Below are positions 6,060 to 18,452 of a stretch of DNA of 64,000 bases, piece by piece. The notes under the pieces were generated by a model. The model was not told where the DNA came from and made no database searches. It saw nothing but the letters and a program-made list of their open reading frames with translations. The number at the start of each line of letters is the position of its first letter. Position 1 is the stretch's first letter. Source of the DNA: Picochlorum sp. SENEW3 (Eukaryota); contig CP120453.1 in NCBI GenBank assembly GCA_034226945.1, forward strand, positions 496,001-560,000, read 5' to 3'. The position numbers and the translations under genes are program-made.

Positions 6060-9000
6060 ATGTCTGTTGGACTGAAAGATTTTTTGCCTGGTTGGTTGTC
6101 TGGGCAGGACGGTCAACAACTGAGGCGTGTGGCTTCCATTGGGGATGGAGAGATCGTTTCAGCGGCGTATGGTACGTCAGATTGTACTGTATCCTTGTAT
6201 GGACGTCTCTGGTAGGATTCCCCAGCGCTATGGAATCATGTACTTGAATATTTGGTTGTGCAGATGTGTCACAGGACATGTGGAGGCATGATGTTGTTGT
6301 GACTGCAGAGTCACATCAAACGTGCTCGTTGTCGGCTGAGTACCGGTCATTTTTGAGCAGCATAGCAAGGAAACTGGCGTCGAAAGAGGCCAATGGATCT
6401 TCCCTCCTGATGAACCTAGGGCCGGTGTGGAATGATGTGCTTGATTTGAAAACATGTGTGTGGCAGATGCAAGACTGTGTGTGGGAGAGTCCATCGGGGT
6501 TGGGGATATGTCCATTGGATACTTTAGCGAGCATTTGTGGTAGAATTCATGAGCATATGGCTCGGATAAAGAATCCTATGGTCATTCTGCATGCTCATAC
6601 ATGTACTGGTACTGGGTCCCAGGTTGCTTATTTCATTGCTGTGGCGCATCATATATTCTCAGCTGGCGTGGACTCCGTGGGTGATGCAGTGCTATTGATT
6701 CAAAAGCATCGAAATGTTTTGTCAATGGATTCTGCCTCGATCGTGGGTTTGCTGCCTGCCCAGAAGCGATACTGTGAATATTTGTCCTGGATTTTGCATC
6801 ACCCTCACGTGGTTCCTGATCATGGTGCCGACTATTTGTTGACTCGTGTGAGATTTCGCATGCTACAAGCTTTTCATGTTCAGCCAGGGGGTGAAGAGGA
6901 AGGCTGGAGGCCAGAACGGTTGCTCATGGGCGTGTACTGTGGTGGGAGGCAGGTGTGGTCAGGTGGGGTGTGCCCTGGATCCATCGTGGATGATGGCGAT
7001 ACATTAGATTTCAATATAGAAGGAACAGAAGAGTATGACAGAGGTGTTTGTATGTCTGGGGATGTGGTGATTGCAGTCTGGTTCAATGATCACAAGTCGC
7101 GTTGGACGCCTCCTCGACTGGCATATGCTTTTCATGCATCATTTATGGCATGTGAAGAGGAGGGGCATGAAGGAAAGGTGCGACTTTTCGCAAGGCATTT
7201 GGATACACCGGATACGTCGATGAGCTACCGAGATCTTGCGGAGAAGGAAGGATTTTGGATGGAGATGGAGTTTGAGAGCCTCAGGAGGACTGCTGGTGTG
7301 TCTTCCATAAGGGACGAGTGGGTCGAGACCATGAGGCAGACTGGCGGTCATTTGAAATTGCGTGATGGTCATATCCATGCTGACCCAATGAGACGTGTCG
7401 TGGCTGAAATGAAGAGCGCTAATGGGCTTCAAAATGGTTCTGGCGACACCAATGTGCTTGTGGTTGAAGAGCATGAAACAGAAGAAGAAGGGATACCTCG
7501 TACTGATCCCGAGATGTTCAACGAATGGAATGATAAATGCCAACAAGCGCTGGCGGATTTAAAGCTGCATTTATCAGCAGCACGGGGGCTGTTTCCTGAT
7601 GATGACAATGTGGTCAGAAACACTATTGAGGAGCCCAATGAGGAAATATCAGATGGAGCTGGGGATGAAAATATGCAGAATAGCTACGCAGAATCGCTTT
7701 TAGTAGATCAGGAAGGATGCAAGGTATCTGATGCATCATATGGAATATCTGGGTTTTCAACAGGGGACAAATCCCTAGCACCTTCACCTATGCCTGGTTC
7801 TAGTGGAGGAAACAAATCTCCAGTGCCATCTCCACCACCCATGCCTGGTTCTTCAGCTGGTGCAGGGAGCAAGTCTCCACCGCCACCTCCACCTCCTATG
7901 CCTGGTTCTTCAGCTGCTGCAGGGAGCAAGTCTCCACCGCCACCTCCACCTCCTATGCCTGGTTCTAGTGGAGGAAGCAAATCTCCAGTGCCATCTCCAC
8001 CACCCATGCCTGGTTCTTCAGCTGGTGCAGGGAGCAAGTCTCCACCGCCACCTCCACCTCCTATGCCTGGTTCTAGTGGAGGAAGCAAATCTCCAGTGCC
8101 ATCTCCACCACCCATGCCTGGTTCTTCAGCTACAGAGAGCAAGTCTCCACCACCACCTCCTCCTCCTATGCCTGGTTCCAGTGGAGGAAACAAATCTCCA
8201 GTGCCATCTCCACCACCCATGCCTGGTTCTTCAGCTGCTGCAGGGAGCAAATCTCCACCACCACCTCCTCCTCCTATGCCTGGTTCTAGTGGAGGAAACA
8301 AATCTCCAGTGCCATCTCCACCACCCATGCCTGGTTCTTCAGCTGGTGCAGGGAGCAAATCTCCACCACCACCTCCTCCTCCTATGCCTGGTTCCAGTGG
8401 AGGAAACAAATCTCCAGTGCCATCTCCACCACCCATGCCTGGTTCTTCAGTTGCTGCAGGTAGCAAGTCTCCACCACCACCTCCTCCGCCCCCACCAATG
8501 TCTGGATCAAAAGGAGACGGAGCAACAGCAGAGATGGGCCCTGTTTCAACTCCTGGAAAGCCCAAGCCACCTACCCAAGGATTGCAGACACCTAAAAATG
8601 AGGGACCAAAGTATCGTTCCATCTTTTGGAAAAAGAGTTTTCTGCGTGGAGGAACAGTATGGTCTGATATCAATCCAGTTCTGGATTTGAATAAAGTAGA
8701 AATGGACTTCTTGCACGAGTTGTTTGTTGCCAGAGAAGCAAAGCAGAACACCCCTGTGTCGCAGTCAAAACCTGTGGCATCAACCCCAGAATTCCAAATT
8801 GTGCAAGATTTGACGAGAGCAAATAATATTTCCATCATACTGAAATCCTTTGCTTTGTTTGGTTCGCCCTCGGGGATAAAAGAAGCAATCCTGCAAGGCA
8901 GTGAAAAGCTGTCAGAAAGACACCTGGAGCAGCTCAAACAGATGATTCCGAGACAGCAAGAACTCGAAGCAATCAGTTGCTTCACGGGCACAGTATCTGA

Positions 9001-9928
9001 TCTACATCTTCCAGAGCAGTTTCTCGTGAGCATGGCAAGTATTCCAAGGCTCGAAAGAAAATTGAATGTTCTAATGTTTCAGAAACAATTTCAGACTCTC
9101 ATTGCTGGAGCCAATAAAGGAATGACTGCTCTTTCCCAGTCGTGCGAACGAATCAAACATTGCGAGAGACTCAAAATAATCCTATCATCCATCCTAGCTG
9201 CAGGAAACATTCTAAATGCAAGCACGATGCGAGGCGGGGCCTCTGCCATCAAGTTGGAGAGTATTCTCAAACTTGCAGATGTCAAAGTCGTGAACAAATT
9301 CGACAAAGGAAAGCTCGTAGATGGAGTCCAGGTACCACCAGTGCAGACATTTTTAGACTTTGTTGCCTGGAAAGTCATGTGCTCGGATGCAGATTTGGAT
9401 GAGGATGGTATCAAACAGGCAGCCCATGAGGGATACCTTGCAAGAGATTTGGGAGTGTTGAGACAAGCGGTAGTCCTCATGGAATCAGATGTGAAGCAGA
9501 ATATCGACTCATTAGAAAAAGGAATGAAGTTAGTACAAGACGAAATGAACTTGGAGGAAAATGCCGCATCCAGCGATAATGTTCCAAATAGACAGTCCTC
9601 ATCCCAATCTCCAGCCGATGCAGCTGCCAGCAGTGCTGACATCCCAGGCGCCAAAGCAGCGTCGCCTTTCCTCACCATGGTCCAGGCATTCGTGAAACAA
9701 GCAGAAGAAGATATCGATCAGATCCGTGCTTCCGCCAAGAAGACCACTGCAGCCCAAGAAGAGATTGTCTCCTGGATGGGAGAAACTGGCTCCCTCGATG
9801 CCCCAGAACTTTTGAGAGCAATCCTCCACTTCTCCAGAGATTTTGATGCATCCTTCTCAAAGGTCTTCCGCATGCTTGGAATTGAAGGCGTCCGCGAGTG
9901 TCGCAGCACCAGGCAGGCAGAAGAGTAG
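6060..9928 (+). CDS. Class II-type formin (PTEN-like/C2 - FH1 - FH2); exons 6060-6171 and 6264-9928
   Basis: PAQKRYCEYL PTEN-like motif, SGDVVIAVW...AFHASF C2 motif, polyproline FH1, FH2 motifs RANNISIIL, IPRLERKL and ILAAGNILN...AIKLESILKLADVK; phase-compatible intron GTACGT...GCAG 6172-6263. Confidence 0.9.
7785..8500 (+). repeat. Near-identical coding minisatellite forming the formin FH1 domain
   Basis: Alternating units PMPGSSGG(N/S)KSPVPSPP and PMPGSSA(G/A)AGSKSPPPPPP, combined period about 117 bp. Confidence 0.95.
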
Positions 9929-10193: not shown

Positions 10194-10958
10194 ATGAAGG
10201 TGCTCGCAAGCAGACAATCTGTGGCAATGCCCCAGAGAATGGGTATAATTTCTTCAAAGAAGCCATTAGAATCTGGATTCATGACTGGACATGCTCCAGG
10301 ATTCAAGGGAATGCAGCTCAGACAGACAGTCCACCAGGTAGCCTCCTGCCGCAACGTCACCGTCATGGCCGCAAAAGGTATGCAGCATAGCACATTGTAC
10401 TAGATTGGATATATAAATACAATTCATAGAATCTCCTTGCCCCTGAATGCCTAGGGTCCAGCAATCGAGCCGGCTCGAAGCATCTCTTCAGTGAAATGTG
10501 CTACAACTCACAGTTCTCTGACGATGAATTCAACATGACATGCAGTATCTGGATATATCAAACTTGCCATTCCAGCAGGAAAGGCCAACCCATCTCCACC
10601 AATCGGTCCAGCCTTGGGAGCACAGGGAGTAAACATTATGGCCTTTTGCAAAGAATACAACGCTGCCACACAGGATAAAATTGGCACCATCATTCCTGTC
10701 GAAATCACAGTATACGAGGATAGAAGCTTTACTTTTGTTCTGAAAACACCACCAGCGTCTGTCTTGTTGAAACAGGCTGCTGGCGTAGCTAAAGGATCCG
10801 GCACACCAAACTCTGCCAAGGTTGGATCAGTGACACAGGATCAGCTCAGGGAGATTGCCACCACCAAGCTTCCAGATCTCAACTGTACTGATATCGACGC
10901 AGCCATGAAAATTGTAGAGGGAACAGCCAAGAACATGGGAATTACGGTCGACGCATAA
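10194..10958 (+). CDS. RPL11: Plastid 50S ribosomal protein L11; exons 10194-10377 and 10546-10958
   Basis: Transit peptide plus [38 protein letters not shown]...; GT-AG intron 10378-10545. Confidence 0.95.
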
Positions 10959-11167: not shown

Positions 11168-12331
11168 ATGCGACGCAAGGACGATTCTGATGTGGTATCA
11201 CAGATAACAAGTACATTGTCAGGACCATGGAGCGCCAGCAGTGTCGCGGGCATGCTCACAGTGGAGTCGATAGGCAAGCTTGTAGCGTCTGGAAAACAGT
11301 GGGACGCCATGGACCCTTTAGTGAAAGCGAGGCTGCTTATAGCCCCATTATTCATGAGAAAATCAGATTTAGATGCGATTCGTGATGAATTAAGGAAGAT
11401 TCAGGGGATGGCCAAGTTGGATACAAACGAATGGGTGTCCATGCTTGCAATTGCAGTTGACGGATATGATGGTCGCATTCATACCGACAAGGTGCTGCAG
11501 AGTATACCCATAGTTAAGGAAACTCTCGATGAGGTGATTGAATTGGCTGGATCGATCGATCCCATGGCGTATAGGCCAGTGGAGGAGGAATACTTGACAG
11601 ACAGCATCTTGTCAGACATGGGTGCGCCTGTGCGTTGTTCAATCGAACGAGAGGGGGATGATACTGGCCATACGCATTTCAAGGTGAGAGATCCAAAAGA
11701 TGTGGTTGGCACAGAGATGCCAGCGCAGCATTCAAAGCCACCACTGGGGAGCAATGGGTTTGACAGGAAGCGAGATAGAGGTGCTGGGCTGGTTCCCATG
11801 GATTCTAAGAAACTCAAGTCGTCTTCCTTGTTTATCAATCCAAAGTCAAAACCTCTGAGTAGGCAGTTGCAATCAAAGCAGGCGGTGCAACAACACCAAA
11901 AGAAGAAGAAGGCTGCAGTGCTTGACATTACTGCCATACAGCAGGCACGAGCGGTCAACGAGCAGCGTCGGAAAGATTTGGAGACACAAAAGGAGAAGGA
12001 GAAAGAAAGGCAGGCGAAAGAGCGGGTGGACAATGCATTGGCTGAGAAACAGGCAAAGGAAGAGAGAAAAAGAATGATGAAGGAGGCAGAGAAGAAGAAA
12101 AAGGAGATGCAGAAACAAAAGGCAAAGGAGGAGCGAGCCAGGGTAGCAGAAGAAGCAAAGGCTGCGAAAAAGAAGGAGGCGTTAGAGAAGAAGAAGAAAA
12201 AGCCGACGGTGGAGCCAGTGGACCCAAGCGATGTACGAGCTGCTCTGGAAAGAGCAGGGATCAGGGCTGATATTCGTTCAGTACATGAAATTCAAAACCC
12301 TGACCTTCGATCTGACCAAATGCATAAATAA
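11168..12331 (+). CDS. Negative elongation factor A (NELF-A)-like N-terminal domain plus charged coiled-coil tail
   Basis: Colinear match by eye to the NELF-A N-terminus: W.A.SVAGML, VKARLL, IQGMAKLDTNEWVSML, YRPVEEEYLT, THFKVR. Confidence 0.7.
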   Translation: MRRKDDSDVVSQITSTLSGPWSASSVAGMLTVESIGKLVASGKQWDAMDPLVKARLLIAPLFMRKSDLDAIRDELRKIQGMAKLDTNEWVSMLAIAVDGYDGRIHTDKVLQSIPIVKETLDEVIELAGSIDPMAYRPVEEEYLTDSILSDMGAPVRCSIEREGDDTGHTHFKVRDPKDVVGTEMPAQHSKPPLGSNGFDRKRDRGAGLVPMDSKKLKSSSLFINPKSKPLSRQLQSKQAVQQHQKKKKAAVLDITAIQQARAVNEQRRKDLETQKEKEKERQAKERVDNALAEKQAKEERKRMMKEAEKKKKEMQKQKAKEERARVAEEAKAAKKKEALEKKKKKPTVEPVDPSDVRAALERAGIRADIRSVHEIQNPDLRSDQMHK

Positions 12332-12409: not shown

Positions 12410-13915
12410 ATGTCGAGAGCACTGGAGACTGTCCGTCATGCCGCAATACGGGCATTTTATCGCCATGTCGGTCATCGCAGGTGTTTTGGAACATTCGAGA
12501 GAGGAAATTTCAAAGTACTGGATGAGAAGGATGTATCTTATTTCAAACAACTGCTGGGGGCTGGCAGTGTTGTCTACCAAAATGCATTCGATTTGGAGGG
12601 GTATAACAGAGATTGGTTGGGGAAATACCGAGGAAATAGTAGCCTTGTGTTGAAACCAAAGTCTACGGATGAGGTCTCTCATGTTCTAAATTATTGTCAT
12701 GAACACAGCATTGCACTAGCACCTCAAGGTGGGAATACAGGTTTGGTAGGTGGAAGTGTTCCCGTCTTTGACGAGGTTGTCCTGTCCATGTCGAGAATGA
12801 ATACTATTCATGCATTTGATGAGATCTCTGGCGTCGTGGAATGTGATGCGGGATGCGTGTTAGAAGATATTGATCAGTTTTTGCTCCAGAAAGGATATAC
12901 TGTTCCCCTCGACTTGGGTGCCAAAGGGTCTTGTCAAATAGGCGGTAATGTTGCAACGAATGCTGGAGGATTGAGATTTCTACGATATGGTAGCTTGCAT
13001 GGCTCGGTGCTGGGGCTGGAAGTAGTATTACCAAACGGTGAGGTGCTGGACCAGAATACCTCTGTGAGGAAGGACAACACTGGATATGATCTGAAGCAGC
13101 TCTTTATTGGTTCGGAGGGAACGCTTGGTGTTATCACCAAAGTTGCTCTCATGTGTCCTCAAGAGCCGAAATCAATTCACCTGTGTTATTTGGCATGTCC
13201 AACATTTTCCTTGGTGACTGAGGTATTGAAGTTGGCAAAGAAGGAATTGGGTGAGATATTGGCAGCATTTGAATATCTCGACCAGGAGTCTGTAGATATT
13301 GCCGTAGACACGCTGTCTTTACGGAATCCTCTGGGTACAAATGATGAACGAATGTATTATATTGTATTAGAAACGCGTGGCAGTCACCATGGTCATGATG
13401 CAGAAAAGGTGGAACAGTTTCTGGAATTGTGCATGAGCAAAGGGGTTGTGTCTGATGGGACGATTGCGCAGGATGCAACGCAGTCAAAAGCGATATGGGA
13501 ATTGCGAGAGAGTGTGACTGAGGCATTGCGGGTGAAAGGAGCCACATACAAGTACGATGTCTCGGTTCCAATTTATCAGATGGATGACGTGGTGCAGGAG
13601 ACAAGGGAGCGTTTGAGAAACCAGCCTGATTGCTTGGTTGTCGGGTATGGGCATGTCGCTGACAATAATCTCCATCTGAATATATCCGTCCCAAAGTATT
13701 CTGACGCAATTCGTGACATGTTGGAACCATGGATTTATACCAAGGTCACATCATTAGGAGGGAGCATATCTGCCGAGCATGGCATCGGGCAGATGAAATC
13801 TGCTGCATTGGCACGAACAAAGCCAAAAAATGCATTACATCTAATGCGAGATCTCAAGAAAACAATAGATCCTAAGGGAATAATGAATCCGTACAAGATA
13901 TTTACTACGTTATGA
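12410..13915 (+). CDS. D2HGDH: D-2-hydroxyglutarate dehydrogenase, mitochondrial (FAD-linked oxidase)
   Basis: PQGGNTGLVGGSVPVFDE, DLGAKGSCQIGGNVATNAGG, RKDNTGYDLKQLFIGSEG, SISAEHGIG; first ATG at 12410 with an Arg-rich presequence. Confidence 0.95.
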   Translation: MSRALETVRHAAIRAFYRHVGHRRCFGTFERGNFKVLDEKDVSYFKQLLGAGSVVYQNAFDLEGYNRDWLGKYRGNSSLVLKPKSTDEVSHVLNYCHEHSIALAPQGGNTGLVGGSVPVFDEVVLSMSRMNTIHAFDEISGVVECDAGCVLEDIDQFLLQKGYTVPLDLGAKGSCQIGGNVATNAGGLRFLRYGSLHGSVLGLEVVLPNGEVLDQNTSVRKDNTGYDLKQLFIGSEGTLGVITKVALMCPQEPKSIHLCYLACPTFSLVTEVLKLAKKELGEILAAFEYLDQESVDIAVDTLSLRNPLGTNDERMYYIVLETRGSHHGHDAEKVEQFLELCMSKGVVSDGTIAQDATQSKAIWELRESVTEALRVKGATYKYDVSVPIYQMDDVVQETRERLRNQPDCLVVGYGHVADNNLHLNISVPKYSDAIRDMLEPWIYTKVTSLGGSISAEHGIGQMKSAALARTKPKNALHLMRDLKKTIDPKGIMNPYKIFTTL

Positions 13916-13921
13916 ATGCAC

Positions 13922-16369
13922 TCATGTGTGTTGGACAAGTGGTCCGAATATATCTCTGCAATTTGTAAATGTACCCTTTTCTCTCTCCGGCCAATATTCA
14001 CCATTGAACTCGAACGACAACTCCCTTGATGAAATATGCCGCTTTGAAGAGCTTCTCCTCGAAAAGTCGACTTCTTCGAAATTGATAGAAAACCACCTGG
14101 GCTTTAATGGAATGCCTTCATCCGCAGCCTTGCGTGCTGCCCGCTGTTTGTGCTCCAATCTCTGCTTCTCTGCATTAGCCTCCTCCCACATACCACGCTC
14201 TGTGAAAGATTGATCAGGCCGTAATCTACTATCTGTGGGTGCCAATTTCTCTTGCAGCCCTGGGGTAATTTCATTCAATTGAATCGCAAATGAAGTGAGG
14301 TTGTACCTTGTGGGGTTCTCTGGAGGTGGGTTCTTCTTCCACAGCGATTGTCGCTTGTTAGGACCCCATAGTACATGCACTTTACTATCCCAGTGGCCCG
14401 AAAGTTGTGGATATTCTAGTTTTTGCCCACGAGATTCGATAAATCCTTCAACTTGGCGGGGAACTCTGTCAAAAAGCATGCCTGTTTCTTTGAATCGAAT
14501 CTTCATCACCATGTCTGAGTTTGTATTGTGAATCTTCATAATGCCACCATGATCAACATAAATTTTACCCAAAATCAAGTTGTTAATACTGGTCGTCACC
14601 TTGTTCCAAAAGTATTGATCCCCATCATCAAAATCCAACCTGAGAACTCCCTCTGGCTTGAGCTCTATAGATCTCCCCCAGAATTTGCTCTTCACCTCGG
14701 CATCTCCTTGGTATGTCCATCCTCTTCCTTCTGCGTAGGCAGCTATAATGGTTGGGTGATGGCTAACCTTTTCTGATATAAATCGAAATCCTTTCTCGAC
14801 ACTAACCAATTCATACGTCTCCCCCAGCAGTGGATTGAACGGCTTTGATGTCCTTCCAACTGTGGAGGAGTACGGGCTAATTGCAAAAGCTGCCACTCGC
14901 ACAATTCTCTCCAAAGACCCTTTGGGGTACATGTAGGCTTCGTCCAAAAGCTCACTGTATTCCAGATCCTCAGCAGTCTTCTCCAGTGCAGATAGAGGCT
15001 CGTTAAAATACACTGGCAAGCACACCCTCGTCAAGTCCTTCCCCACCATTTCTTTAATCAAAGACCAAAGAGAAACACTCCTCTCTTGCTGCTTTGGAAG
15101 GGGCAGGGCTGCCCTACGCTGAGGAGCCTCTCCCTCTTGAAGCATCCAGGCAGGGGTGGGCAACTCCTTCTTTGCTGCATCAATGCCATGCTCTTTTCCG
15201 CCGTCGTCCCATTTCTCACTCTTTGTTGCAGACTCCATCAACGTGGGCTGCCGCTCAAGACCGTCCTCATTCAAGCTACATACTGCATCAAACTCTGCCA
15301 AATCACCCAAACTTGTGTGCCTGCTATGATAATGCTCATGCGCATCAACAAACGTCTCACACTCGAAAAACTCTTCATCAGATGACATTTGAGGCTCTAA
15401 ATTCCGCGCTGATTCCTCTCGCATATCCATAGTTTCGTCATCCTCCTCTCCATACGATGATTCCTGTGGCGACTCATTCCCTCGAGCTTGTTCAGTCATC
15501 AATCTCCCTTCCACAGCTGCATTCGTTTCCAACTGCCTTTTCTCATTTTCCAACCGATACACAATATCCAACAACGTCTTTCGCTTGGAAAATTCCGAAT
15601 CAGCCAAATCATGATATCTGGTATGCATATCAGTCACCAGTCCCACCACATATGTTATCAAAGACTGCGAGCCTCCCAACTCTTCAAGCTTTTGCCGTAT
15701 ATGTTCCGTCTGAGACTTGAAATAATCCTTGGAATGAACCGTCGAATGCTCATCAATACGAGACATCTGGCGCTTCTCCAAATCCATCTTGGCTTCCTGT
15801 ATCGCATCAATCCACACCCACCTATCATCCTGCGTTTCGCTGCGAAGTTCCAACACACTCGTCCCACTATCAACATAAAATTTGGTCACATCCGCCTTCG
15901 ACTCCCTCACCTGGCACACCTGCACGTGCATCTCTGCCTTTGGCTTCAACCCTTCCCCAGCCACACCATGACCATTCATCCTCTGCTGCTCCTTCTCCAA
16001 CACACCAATCTGAACCCCCACAAGCACAACATCCCCTTGACTCCTTAACCGATCCAATACATCAACCACAGCCACCCTATTCGGCCCATACACTTGATAA
16101 TACTTCAACACCCCTTGTTGCAACACAAACAGCCTGGGCCTCCATCCAGCAGCAAGATTCACATACTTTTGCAATACACCAACAATGATCTGTACACCAA
16201 AATCAGATGCGTATGTATCAGTATTCGACGTATATCCCCATCCTGGCGGATGAGATGAGTTGGCTGGGATGCGACCAATCCTTCTCCAATAATAAAGCGC
16301 ATATCGTACCTTATTCTGCTGCCTAGTATATCCTATAGGACTCAATCTGGTATTCTGAGAGGCATCCAT
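13922..16369 (-). CDS. Oxysterol-binding protein-related protein (PH + ORD); probable intron 16309-16190
   Basis: PH GVLQKYVNLAAGWRPRLF, FFAT-like EEFFECE, DLTRVCLPVYFNEPLS, KPFNPLLGETYE, EKVSHHP, PTDSRLRPDQ. Confidence 0.93.
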   Translation of the reverse strand: MDASQNTRLSPIGYTRQQNKVRYALYYWRRIGRIPANSSHPPGWGYTSNTDTYASDFGVQIIVGVLQKYVNLAAGWRPRLFVLQQGVLKYYQVYGPNRVAVVDVLDRLRSQGDVVLVGVQIGVLEKEQQRMNGHGVAGEGLKPKAEMHVQVCQVRESKADVTKFYVDSGTSVLELRSETQDDRWVWIDAIQEAKMDLEKRQMSRIDEHSTVHSKDYFKSQTEHIRQKLEELGGSQSLITYVVGLVTDMHTRYHDLADSEFSKRKTLLDIVYRLENEKRQLETNAAVEGRLMTEQARGNESPQESSYGEEDDETMDMREESARNLEPQMSSDEEFFECETFVDAHEHYHSRHTSLGDLAEFDAVCSLNEDGLERQPTLMESATKSEKWDDGGKEHGIDAAKKELPTPAWMLQEGEAPQRRAALPLPKQQERSVSLWSLIKEMVGKDLTRVCLPVYFNEPLSALEKTAEDLEYSELLDEAYMYPKGSLERIVRVAAFAISPYSSTVGRTSKPFNPLLGETYELVSVEKGFRFISEKVSHHPTIIAAYAEGRGWTYQGDAEVKSKFWGRSIELKPEGVLRLDFDDGDQYFWNKVTTSINNLILGKIYVDHGGIMKIHNTNSDMVMKIRFKETGMLFDRVPRQVEGFIESRGQKLEYPQLSGHWDSKVHVLWGPNKRQSLWKKNPPPENPTRYNLTSFAIQLNEITPGLQEKLAPTDSRLRPDQSFTERGMWEEANAEKQRLEHKQRAARKAADEGIPLKPRWFSINFEEVDFSRRSSSKRHISSRELSFEFNGEYWPEREKGTFTNCRDIFGPLVQHT

Positions 16370-17039: not shown

Positions 17040-17288
17040 TAGTATTAGTATTGTGGTATCAAAATCTCTGATGACAGCCTGGCATCATGTATGTATGTGA
17101 TGCGACCAATTGGTCCTTGCAAGGATCACGTCAAGAAGAAATCTTGCAAGATTTCCCCTTGCAAGGAGATCTCCGCGGAGATCCTTCTTCTTAATCTTAA
17201 ATAGACATTTAGGTATTATTAATACTCGTGTGTCATGTTGGCTGTATTCGTCTTGATGCGCAATACATATAGAAAAATAATAACAATA

Positions 17289-18452
17289 ATGGAATCCACA
17301 ACGTTGGAGGAAGACTGTCCAGCGAGGCGGCAGGTCACAGAGGTTGTGACCACGCACGCATCGTCTCATGACATGATGACATATAACATTTGGACGCATC
17401 GAGGATATCGAGGAAATACACGGCGGGAGGGTCGAGGTAAAATCATCAAGTCTGATTATAGATGTCATTCGGCTCTGGACTGCGGTTGGACGAGGGGGGA
17501 AAGGGCTGGGAACAGGTTTATATGTTTGTATTTTGCACGAGGCTTGTGCCATCATGGGTCCAGCTGTAATTATGTTCACCGGGTGCCTGATGCTGATTTT
17601 GAGCTATACCATAGGACACAGCCTCAGTATGATATATTTGGGAGGGATAGGTCGTTGGATATTGATGCAAGTACAAAGGGTGCTGGGAGTTTGAACAGAG
17701 ATTGCACAACACTGTACTTGTACTTGGGGGCATTGGCATCTCTTCCTGATGAGACGGTGGAGAAGATGGTTCGTGACGATTTTGAAGAATGGGGTGAGAT
17801 TGAAGAGATTAATATAGTGTCTAAAAAGGCTGTTGGGTTTGTGAGGTATATTCTGCGGTCTGCATCAGAGTTTGCCAAGGCTGCAATGCATCAGCAGCAG
17901 TTGCGAGGGGATACGACGACGGGGACGGTGTTGGATATTCGATGGGCTCATGATGATCCAAATCCTGTGGCTATAGCGCGGGTGAAGGCGAAGCAAGAGA
18001 ATATGTTGGCAGATGCGTACATGGCAGCGATTGAGAGGCTTCCAGCTGAAGAGCGGGCAGCCAAGCTGCAGGAGATTGCTCTGTCGCAAGCGCATACAAA
18101 GGATGCCGTGACGTCTGCGTATCCGAATACATCGCATCAATATGAGATGATTGGCCATTACGATGCACGAACAGGGGAAGAAGAAGGCAACCAGGAGGAT
18201 GCTATAGAAGAAGAAGAAGAAGCATCAGCATCAGAAGAAGAGGATGATATTAACAGGTATTTGTCACCAGACGAGCTAGAAGAGACGGATGCCACACATA
18301 GAATAGCAGCAGCAGCAGTAATAGGTGATGCAAAGAAGAGAAAGGTGGGTGATGGATATGAGAATCATCATGCATCTCCCAAAAGCAATGGACAATCAGA
18401 AGGCCAAGATCTTTTATTGGGTGGTATTTTGGCCAATTATGAGTCCGACTGA
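17289..18452 (+). CDS. CWC2: Pre-mRNA splicing factor Cwc2 (CCCH zinc finger + RRM)
   Basis: PARRQV, YNIW, D.GWTRGE, ICLYFARGLCHHGSSCNYVHRVP, DIFGRDR, RRM, RWAHDDPNP. Confidence 0.9.
   Translation: MESTTLEEDCPARRQVTEVVTTHASSHDMMTYNIWTHRGYRGNTRREGRGKIIKSDYRCHSALDCGWTRGERAGNRFICLYFARGLCHHGSSCNYVHRVPDADFELYHRTQPQYDIFGRDRSLDIDASTKGAGSLNRDCTTLYLYLGALASLPDETVEKMVRDDFEEWGEIEEINIVSKKAVGFVRYILRSASEFAKAAMHQQQLRGDTTTGTVLDIRWAHDDPNPVAIARVKAKQENMLADAYMAAIERLPAEERAAKLQEIALSQAHTKDAVTSAYPNTSHQYEMIGHYDARTGEEEGNQEDAIEEEEEASASEEEDDINRYLSPDELEETDATHRIAAAAVIGDAKKRKVGDGYENHHASPKSNGQSEGQDLLLGGILANYESD

Follow-up and report, generated by a model that had tools for sequence, protein, structure and literature searches.

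NELF is the factor by which RNA polymerase II (Pol II) is paused in animals. The question raised by this locus is whether a small green alga possesses the NELF subunit NELF-A and, if so, whether its protein also retains, beyond the domain that holds its NELF partner, the piece with which human NELF-A docks on Pol II. The window analysed here is a stretch of 64,000 nucleotides from Picochlorum sp. SENEW3 (contig CP120453.1), and positions are given relative to its first letter unless otherwise stated. The feature under study is the following:

11168 to 12331, forward strand: NELF-A gene, one open frame from ATG to TAA, 387 aa, single copy in the genome.

The frame encodes, with near certainty, a single-copy NELF-A orthologue. 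The value of the finding is carried by a motif in the tail of the protein, the likely equivalent of the human Pol II-docking piece, which may allow NELF in this alga to act as a brake on transcription.

The 387-aa frame could be aligned end to end with those of nine relatives (371–411 aa), stop codons are found throughout the opposite strand of 11168–12331 in a reading-frame check, and a family search of the genome returned one copy. The gene sits between a spliced rpl11 gene and a FAD-linked oxidase gene, with 209 nt between the upstream stop codon and the NELF-A ATG and 78 nt between the NELF-A stop codon and the next ATG. The assembly measures 13.9 Mb, and the neighbours are ordinary algal genes. 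The ribosomal protein L11 gene (about 10196–10958) contains a GT-AG intron of 168 nt (10376–10543), which is spliced in run X2, while downstream are housekeeping genes for the FAD-linked oxidase (12410–13915), an oxysterol-binding protein with a PH domain (13922–16369) and a Torus/CCCH/RRM protein (17235–18452). A formin with an FH2 domain and a long proline-rich repeat array is encoded further upstream, at 6278–9928.

A competing gene model concerns a stretch within the frame:

11792 to 11862, forward strand: GT..AG stretch of 71 nt, the removal of which reproduces a public gene model from a relative in its 228-aa length and its frame-shifted end.

That 228-aa model lacks the tail motif described below, which is deleted when 11792–11862 is removed. 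The spliced form is a probable gene-model artefact: the donor, GTTCCC, is atypical compared with the donors at two other introns here, the unspliced frame is kept in nine relatives, a contig from run X2 spans the stretch ungapped, and no splice joint within the NELF-A frame was found in any of the contigs of four read runs (of 21 available). It should be noted that in run X2 the depth exceeds 20,000 over spliced rpl11 and is about 90–220 over the NELF-A frame; because the DNA flanking NELF-A is equally deep, the four runs do not demonstrate transcription of the gene.

The identity of the protein rests on its N-terminal part, which contains two features:

11225 to 11611, forward strand: NELF-A N-terminal helical domain and start of the extended region, the NELF-C-binding part (aa 20–148), from Pfam, PDB and fold matches.
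11675 to 11689, forward strand: HFKVR element (aa 170–174), equivalent to human HFQLK.

Residues 20–148 matched the Pfam family PF23553 (NELF-A_N) with E 3.9e-9 and 37.1 bits (cut-off 27), and residues 1–180 matched human NELF-A (5L3X_A) with E 1.8e-8; three of the four chains returned by the PDB sequence search were NELF-A, the fourth having E 0.64. When a profile of 35 green-algal homologues was compared with one of 29 animal proteins, the match had a probability of 99.7 and E 8e-27, covered residues 6–178 of the algal protein, ended at residue 178 and placed HFKVR on HFQLK. The AlphaFold2 model (mean pLDDT 75.5, mostly > 90 across residues 11–130) shares the fold of human NELF-A 6–182. Compared with 5L3X_A, it gave Z 14.2 and rmsd 5.9 over 167 aligned residues, against Z 7.7 for the best unrelated chain, and all five Foldseek matches at E ≤ 0.001 were NELF-A chains. 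The residues W21 (11228–11230) and W89 (11432–11434) align to human W24 and W89, the two tryptophans reported to insert into NELF-C (PMC4940160).

The extended region is conserved up to the HF element, whose two columns are H in 51 and F in 52 of the 53 non-animal homologues, and the model shows no helix between residues 150 and 254. Within this linker, the KSATLRAELL helix and the TTPLKGIP motif conserved in animals are not recognisable. An atlas comparison of the full protein, used for leads only, returned a cluster made up mostly of oomycete proteins (0.92), with NELF-A clusters at 0.85–0.86 and a low recognition value; the tail alone reached 0.77, likewise a lead only.

The genome also encodes the two partners with which NELF-A would form a complex:

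G000 C4:893159-894889: NELF-C/D gene, genome search E 1.8e-59.
G000 C4:470646-471788: NELF-B gene, genome search E 3.2e-20.

The NELF-C/D product has 645 aa and matches the human chain over residues 37–590 (E 1.8e-26), while NELF-B, with one likely intron, matches its human counterpart with E 4e-28. The genes for RPB2 and for both DSIF subunits, SPT4 and SPT5, are present, as is an ELF1-family exon (E 2.6e-6) that covers the first half of the profile only. A generic RRM search for NELF-E returned 110 matches that were mutually indistinguishable.

The initial annotation, which had called the gene NELF-A-like from its motifs, was thus right about the identity, and the N-terminal motifs that it listed are present in the order given. 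The profile, Foldseek, NELF-B and NELF-C/D searches that it had proposed gave significant matches; the lack of a NELF-A match or of a NELF-C/D gene would have spoken against its idea, and both were found.

The tail, i.e. the part of the protein that follows the HF element, contains four features:

11822 to 11833, forward strand: SSLF linker motif (aa 219–222), recurrent in non-animal NELF-A.
11900 to 11938, forward strand: tentacle motif KKKKAAVLDITAI (aa 245–257), likely equivalent to human NELF-A 250–262, within the region of the RPB2-binding segment 253–266.
11927 to 12190, forward strand: long K/E/R-rich helix, predicted (aa 254–341).
12224 to 12283, forward strand: clade-specific C-terminal helix, predicted (aa 353–372), distinct from the animal NELF-A C-terminal domain.

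The tentacle motif is located just before the K/E helix and is the most conserved stretch of the protein in its clade. Among ten close relatives, nine of its 13 positions are invariant, compared with 50 of 130 in the N-domain, none of the 22 linker positions just upstream and five of 44 elsewhere in the linker. An algae-only profile gave one continuous alignment to human residues 24–286 (46.0 bits) in which VLDISA falls on LLDISE (from KLLDISEL), although the middle of this alignment is of low confidence, with the HF element out of register; against a near-identical entry the same profile scored 37.2 bits and the alignment ended at residue 155. Human residues 253–266 are the part of the tentacle modelled by cryo-EM on the RPB2 protrusion (PMC12359043). 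Because the human numbering of the profile alignment coincides with these residues, the algal motif is aligned to the RPB2-binding segment.

In a MAFFT alignment of 60 of the 145 homologues, i.e. those of at least 300 aa (the 85 shorter ones were dropped), the D253 column is Asp in 47 of the 53 non-animal sequences, ten of which are the algal protein itself and its close relatives; among the seven animal rows, the motif is present in five and gapped in two. Two rows, P0036 and P0104, were dropped for missing the HF element, 12 of 123 animal proteins without the HF pattern were likewise dropped, and the non-redundant sets exclude seven close relatives. A further alignment (A2), in which D253 is one of three invariant columns, consists of rows hand-picked toward motif carriers and is not counted as evidence.

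Alignment-free sampling gave the same motif. With 45 non-animal tails as input, its score was 891, compared with 338–383 in 12 shuffles, and, when animal proteins were scanned with this non-animal motif, the matching site was chosen in 24 of 28. A motif trained on green algae only chose the animal site in 27 of 29 proteins at width 12 and in 24 of 29 at width 10, it being understood that the animal sequences count as one clade and not as 29 tests. As a control, no window of at least 8 bits was found with this motif in 27,820 residues from 51 other frames of the genome, whereas the animal median was 14.9. Carriers of the motif include Balamuthia, Pythium, Mortierella, Radiomyces, Basidiobolus and Pigoraptor, and the copy in Symbiochloris, a trebouxiophyte, is nearly animal-like (animal-only matrix, p 0.0005). 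On these sequence statistics, read through intermediate algae, residues 245–257 are very likely the homologue of human 253–266.

Two observations concern duplication or partial repetition of the motif. Homologue P0014 carries the linker and tentacle motif in two tandem copies, an internal duplication, and the start of the C-terminal helix of the Picochlorum protein (12212–12283) resembles a weak second tentacle motif (p 0.13 here, 0.014 in P0005).

The remainder of the tail is less uniform. The SSLF motif had a Gibbs score of 449, compared with 333–377 in ten shuffles, with many of the 45 sites poor, and it was aligned to human SVF in the algae-only profile alignment only. In many non-animal NELF-A proteins, a Ser/Gly-Leu/Met-Phe motif stands some 25–60 residues before the tentacle motif; it is poorly conserved in animals. 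Lys, Glu and Arg make up 58% of residues 258–347, and the predicted helix in this region may be either a coiled coil or a single alpha-helix. The animal C-terminal domain, searched for with an animal profile, is absent from the algal protein and from the green clade and present in nine of the 53 non-animal homologues, i.e. P0060, P0094, P0108, P0111, P0124, P0132, P0138, P0141 and P0143, which belong to fungi, amoebae and holozoan protists. This domain, for which no Pfam family was found, is shared by animals, fungi and amoebae and is unneeded for membership of the Pfam family. The earlier description of a K/E-rich tail in place of the metazoan C-terminus therefore holds as regards the missing animal domain and the predicted helix, but it had overlooked the conserved motif that precedes that helix.

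The reading that we favour, with a probability of about 60%, is that of a NELF that docks on Pol II and makes early elongation slower. Algal NELF-A would assemble with NELF-C/D and NELF-B, dock on early-elongating Pol II and slow the polymerase, or hold it, close to the promoter. By analogy with the human structure, residues 7–175 would very probably bind NELF-C, whose pockets would receive W21 and W89, and we are equally confident that NELF-C would bind NELF-B. The A-C lobe would lie at the Pol II funnel and trigger loop, the position reported for the human lobe (PMC7111264). The motif would probably bind the RPB2 protrusion and compete there with TFIIF; in human structures the protrusion is also the binding place of TFIIF and Gdown1. 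Together with DSIF, the complex might lengthen the residence of the polymerase after initiation, to which we give even chances, and the pause would probably be weak or dispersed rather than of the sharp animal type. Release would not proceed via proline-directed NELF-A sites, because the algal protein has none: S/T-P sites number 0 in its 387 aa, 0–3 in close relatives and 17 in human NELF-A, where sites of P-TEFb and ERK have been mapped among or near them (PMC9719515).

The alternative that survives best, although we consider it unlikely, is that the A/B/C complex binds Pol II for a job other than a promoter-proximal pause in this compact genome, such as the hand-over from initiation to elongation (TFIIF eviction) or the limiting of read-through between packed genes. 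Gaps of only 209 and 78 nt around the gene would suit such a job, as would the lack of S/T-P sites compared with the human protein, the clash of the tentacle with TFIIF in the human structure (ELOF1 preprint) and a pause residence reported to be 1–2 orders lower outside animals (Chivu, bioRxiv 2023.02.19.529146). The genome gave no match to HEXIM (PF15313), INTS2 (PF14750) or the cyclin-T2-like C-terminal family (PF21797), which might be read in the same sense, but these searches had no positive control and do not imply absence. In favour of a pausing role, pausing indices are reported to be higher in species with NELF-B and -C/D than in species without them (Chivu, bioRxiv 2023.02.19.529146).

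It is also conceivable, though distinctly improbable, that the N-domain binds NELF-C while the tail motif has drifted or is a look-alike that makes no contact with RPB2, as the model of Chivu implies; it might, for example, be a nuclear import signal combined with a helix cap. The animal-only matrix indeed missed the site in the Picochlorum protein (best match elsewhere, p 0.56) and chose it in no more than half of the non-animal tails (26 of 52), and a motif trained on 30 distant non-animal tails found the site in 12 of 15 Chlorellales-like proteins and missed it here. As both the animal-only and the outgroup motifs miss this site, the link of the algal motif to the human one runs through intermediate algae. 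Opposite human K255 and E261 the algal protein has alanines (Ala250 and Ala256). The core of the motif comprises four residues, and a basic run adjoins it. A tail-to-tail profile comparison selected exactly the motif segment with a weak match (P 0.0057, probability 6.5%; 11 control pairs gave P 0.14–0.86). Furthermore, a 14-column green-only sampler converged on the charged helix, giving p < 0.05 in 18 of 29 animals and choosing the site in none of the 29; shuffle p-values are therefore too liberal and are not relied on. The HDAg-like Pol II-binding domain of NELF-A is, moreover, reported only in animals and Capsaspora (InterPro; Chivu, bioRxiv 2023.02.19.529146). What speaks against drift is that neither the position of the motif nor its order in the protein differs between green algae, amoebae, fungi, an oomycete and animals, that the Symbiochloris copy is close to the animal one and that conservation in the Picochlorum clade is strongest precisely there.

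As to the origin of the gene, a 'Picre1' model from JGI comes nearest among named proteins (96% identity over residues 1–185), and the RPB2 of the genome is closest to 'Picsp_1' and Nannochloris entries; we take the codes 'Picre1' and 'Picsp_1' to denote Picochlorum. In a midpoint-rooted tree of 65 N-domains (P0036, P0104 and P0045 left out; five long branches), the protein falls inside a green clade of 36 rows (98/98) and, within the tree, in a clade of 22 rows with Micractinium (100/98); animals, fungi and amoebae branch separately. Named members of the green clade include Chlorokybus, Mesostigma, Cymbomonas, Tetraselmis, Coccomyxa, Symbiochloris and Prasinococcus, and vertical descent would be the simple reading of this nesting. 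That the NELF-A match is due to chance, contamination or transfer from an animal is scarcely credible, since identity to animal NELF-A of only about 24% is set against the agreement of four methods (Pfam, PDB search, profile-profile comparison and fold), the nesting among green algae, the ordinary algal neighbours and the location of the partner genes on another contig; contamination and animal transfer are ruled out by the tree and the partner genes.

The Chlorokybus and Mesostigma homologues (P0034 and P0090) are NELF-A proteins in which the motif core is present. The loss of NELF-A by land plants would therefore have fallen within the streptophytes.

A current model places the origin of the Pol II-binding part of NELF-A close to animals and credits it with sharper pausing. 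Should conservation of the RPB2-docking segment extend from green algae to humans, that origin would lie much further back, and land plants would have lost an anchor that worked. A bolder reading, which we put forward tentatively and with some doubt, is that the RPB2-docking tentacle is as old as the plant–animal split, that NELF-A/B/C with a Pol II anchor is ancestral and that a 14-Mb alga with very short intergenic spaces pauses without NELF-E, HEXIM or proline-directed phosphorylation. If true, it would overturn the view that NELF-A acquired its Pol II binding on the animal stem, and it would provide a minimal system for pause release. A small green alga with a single-copy NELF-A, together with NELF-B and -C/D, would offer a direct test of NELF without the animal additions.

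Compared with human NELF-A (PF23553; 5L3X_A, 6GML_U, 8UHA_U, 9J0N_U), the algal protein has the N-terminal helical domain, the two tryptophans that bind NELF-C and the P-x-E-x-x-Y-L and HF elements. The linker is likewise disordered, and a basic stretch again comes after a hydrophobic-hydrophobic-Asp-Ile motif whose numbering is nearly equal (algal D253, human D258). Unlike the human protein, it has 387 instead of 528 aa, lacks a recognisable KSATLRAELL helix and TTPLKGIP motif, has Ala in place of K255 and E261 and, after the motif, continues as a charged helix of 88 residues without the animal C-terminal domain and without S/T-P sites.

The presence of NELF-A in green algae is already known, and the gene is expected in this group; the initial annotation had itself allowed that presence might not be new. 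NELF-A and -C homologues have been reported in Chlorella variabilis and Dictyostelium, with most regions outside the core divergent (Vos 2016, PMC4940160), and Picochlorum resembles these cases in having NELF-A alongside NELF-C in a trebouxiophyte and in sharing the conserved core; the text passages of that paper on these homologues do not mention a tail motif. Similarly, Chlamydomonas Cre07.g357500 and Cre10.g454350 are listed with a NELF-A domain (2026, PMC13089224), a green-algal annotation like the present one, given there at the level of the domain; partners, tail and function are not analysed in the part of the source that lists them. No earlier report of an RPB2-binding segment conserved outside animals was found in the literature covered; Su and Vos 2024, Diao 2025, Vos 2018, the supplementary material of Chivu and the supplements to the figures of Vos 2016 lie outside that literature and may already show it.

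The closest comparison is with the unicellular NELF described by Chivu (bioRxiv 2023.02.19.529146), according to whom NELF-B and -C/D are widespread, ancestral in eukaryotes and lost in land plants and yeasts, while NELF-A is called more recently derived, with apparent unicellular homologues. As in those organisms, NELF-B and -C/D are present in Picochlorum with a NELF-A homologue. Unlike in that account, however, the segment modelled on RPB2 appears to have been kept by green algae and amoebae as well as by early-diverging fungi and an oomycete, and such conservation would sit badly with a Pol II-binding region restricted to animals and Capsaspora. The two can nevertheless both hold, because the other animal motifs of the region are missing, and it may be the missing KSATLRAELL and TTPLKGIP elements that cause domain scans to pass over the non-animal proteins.
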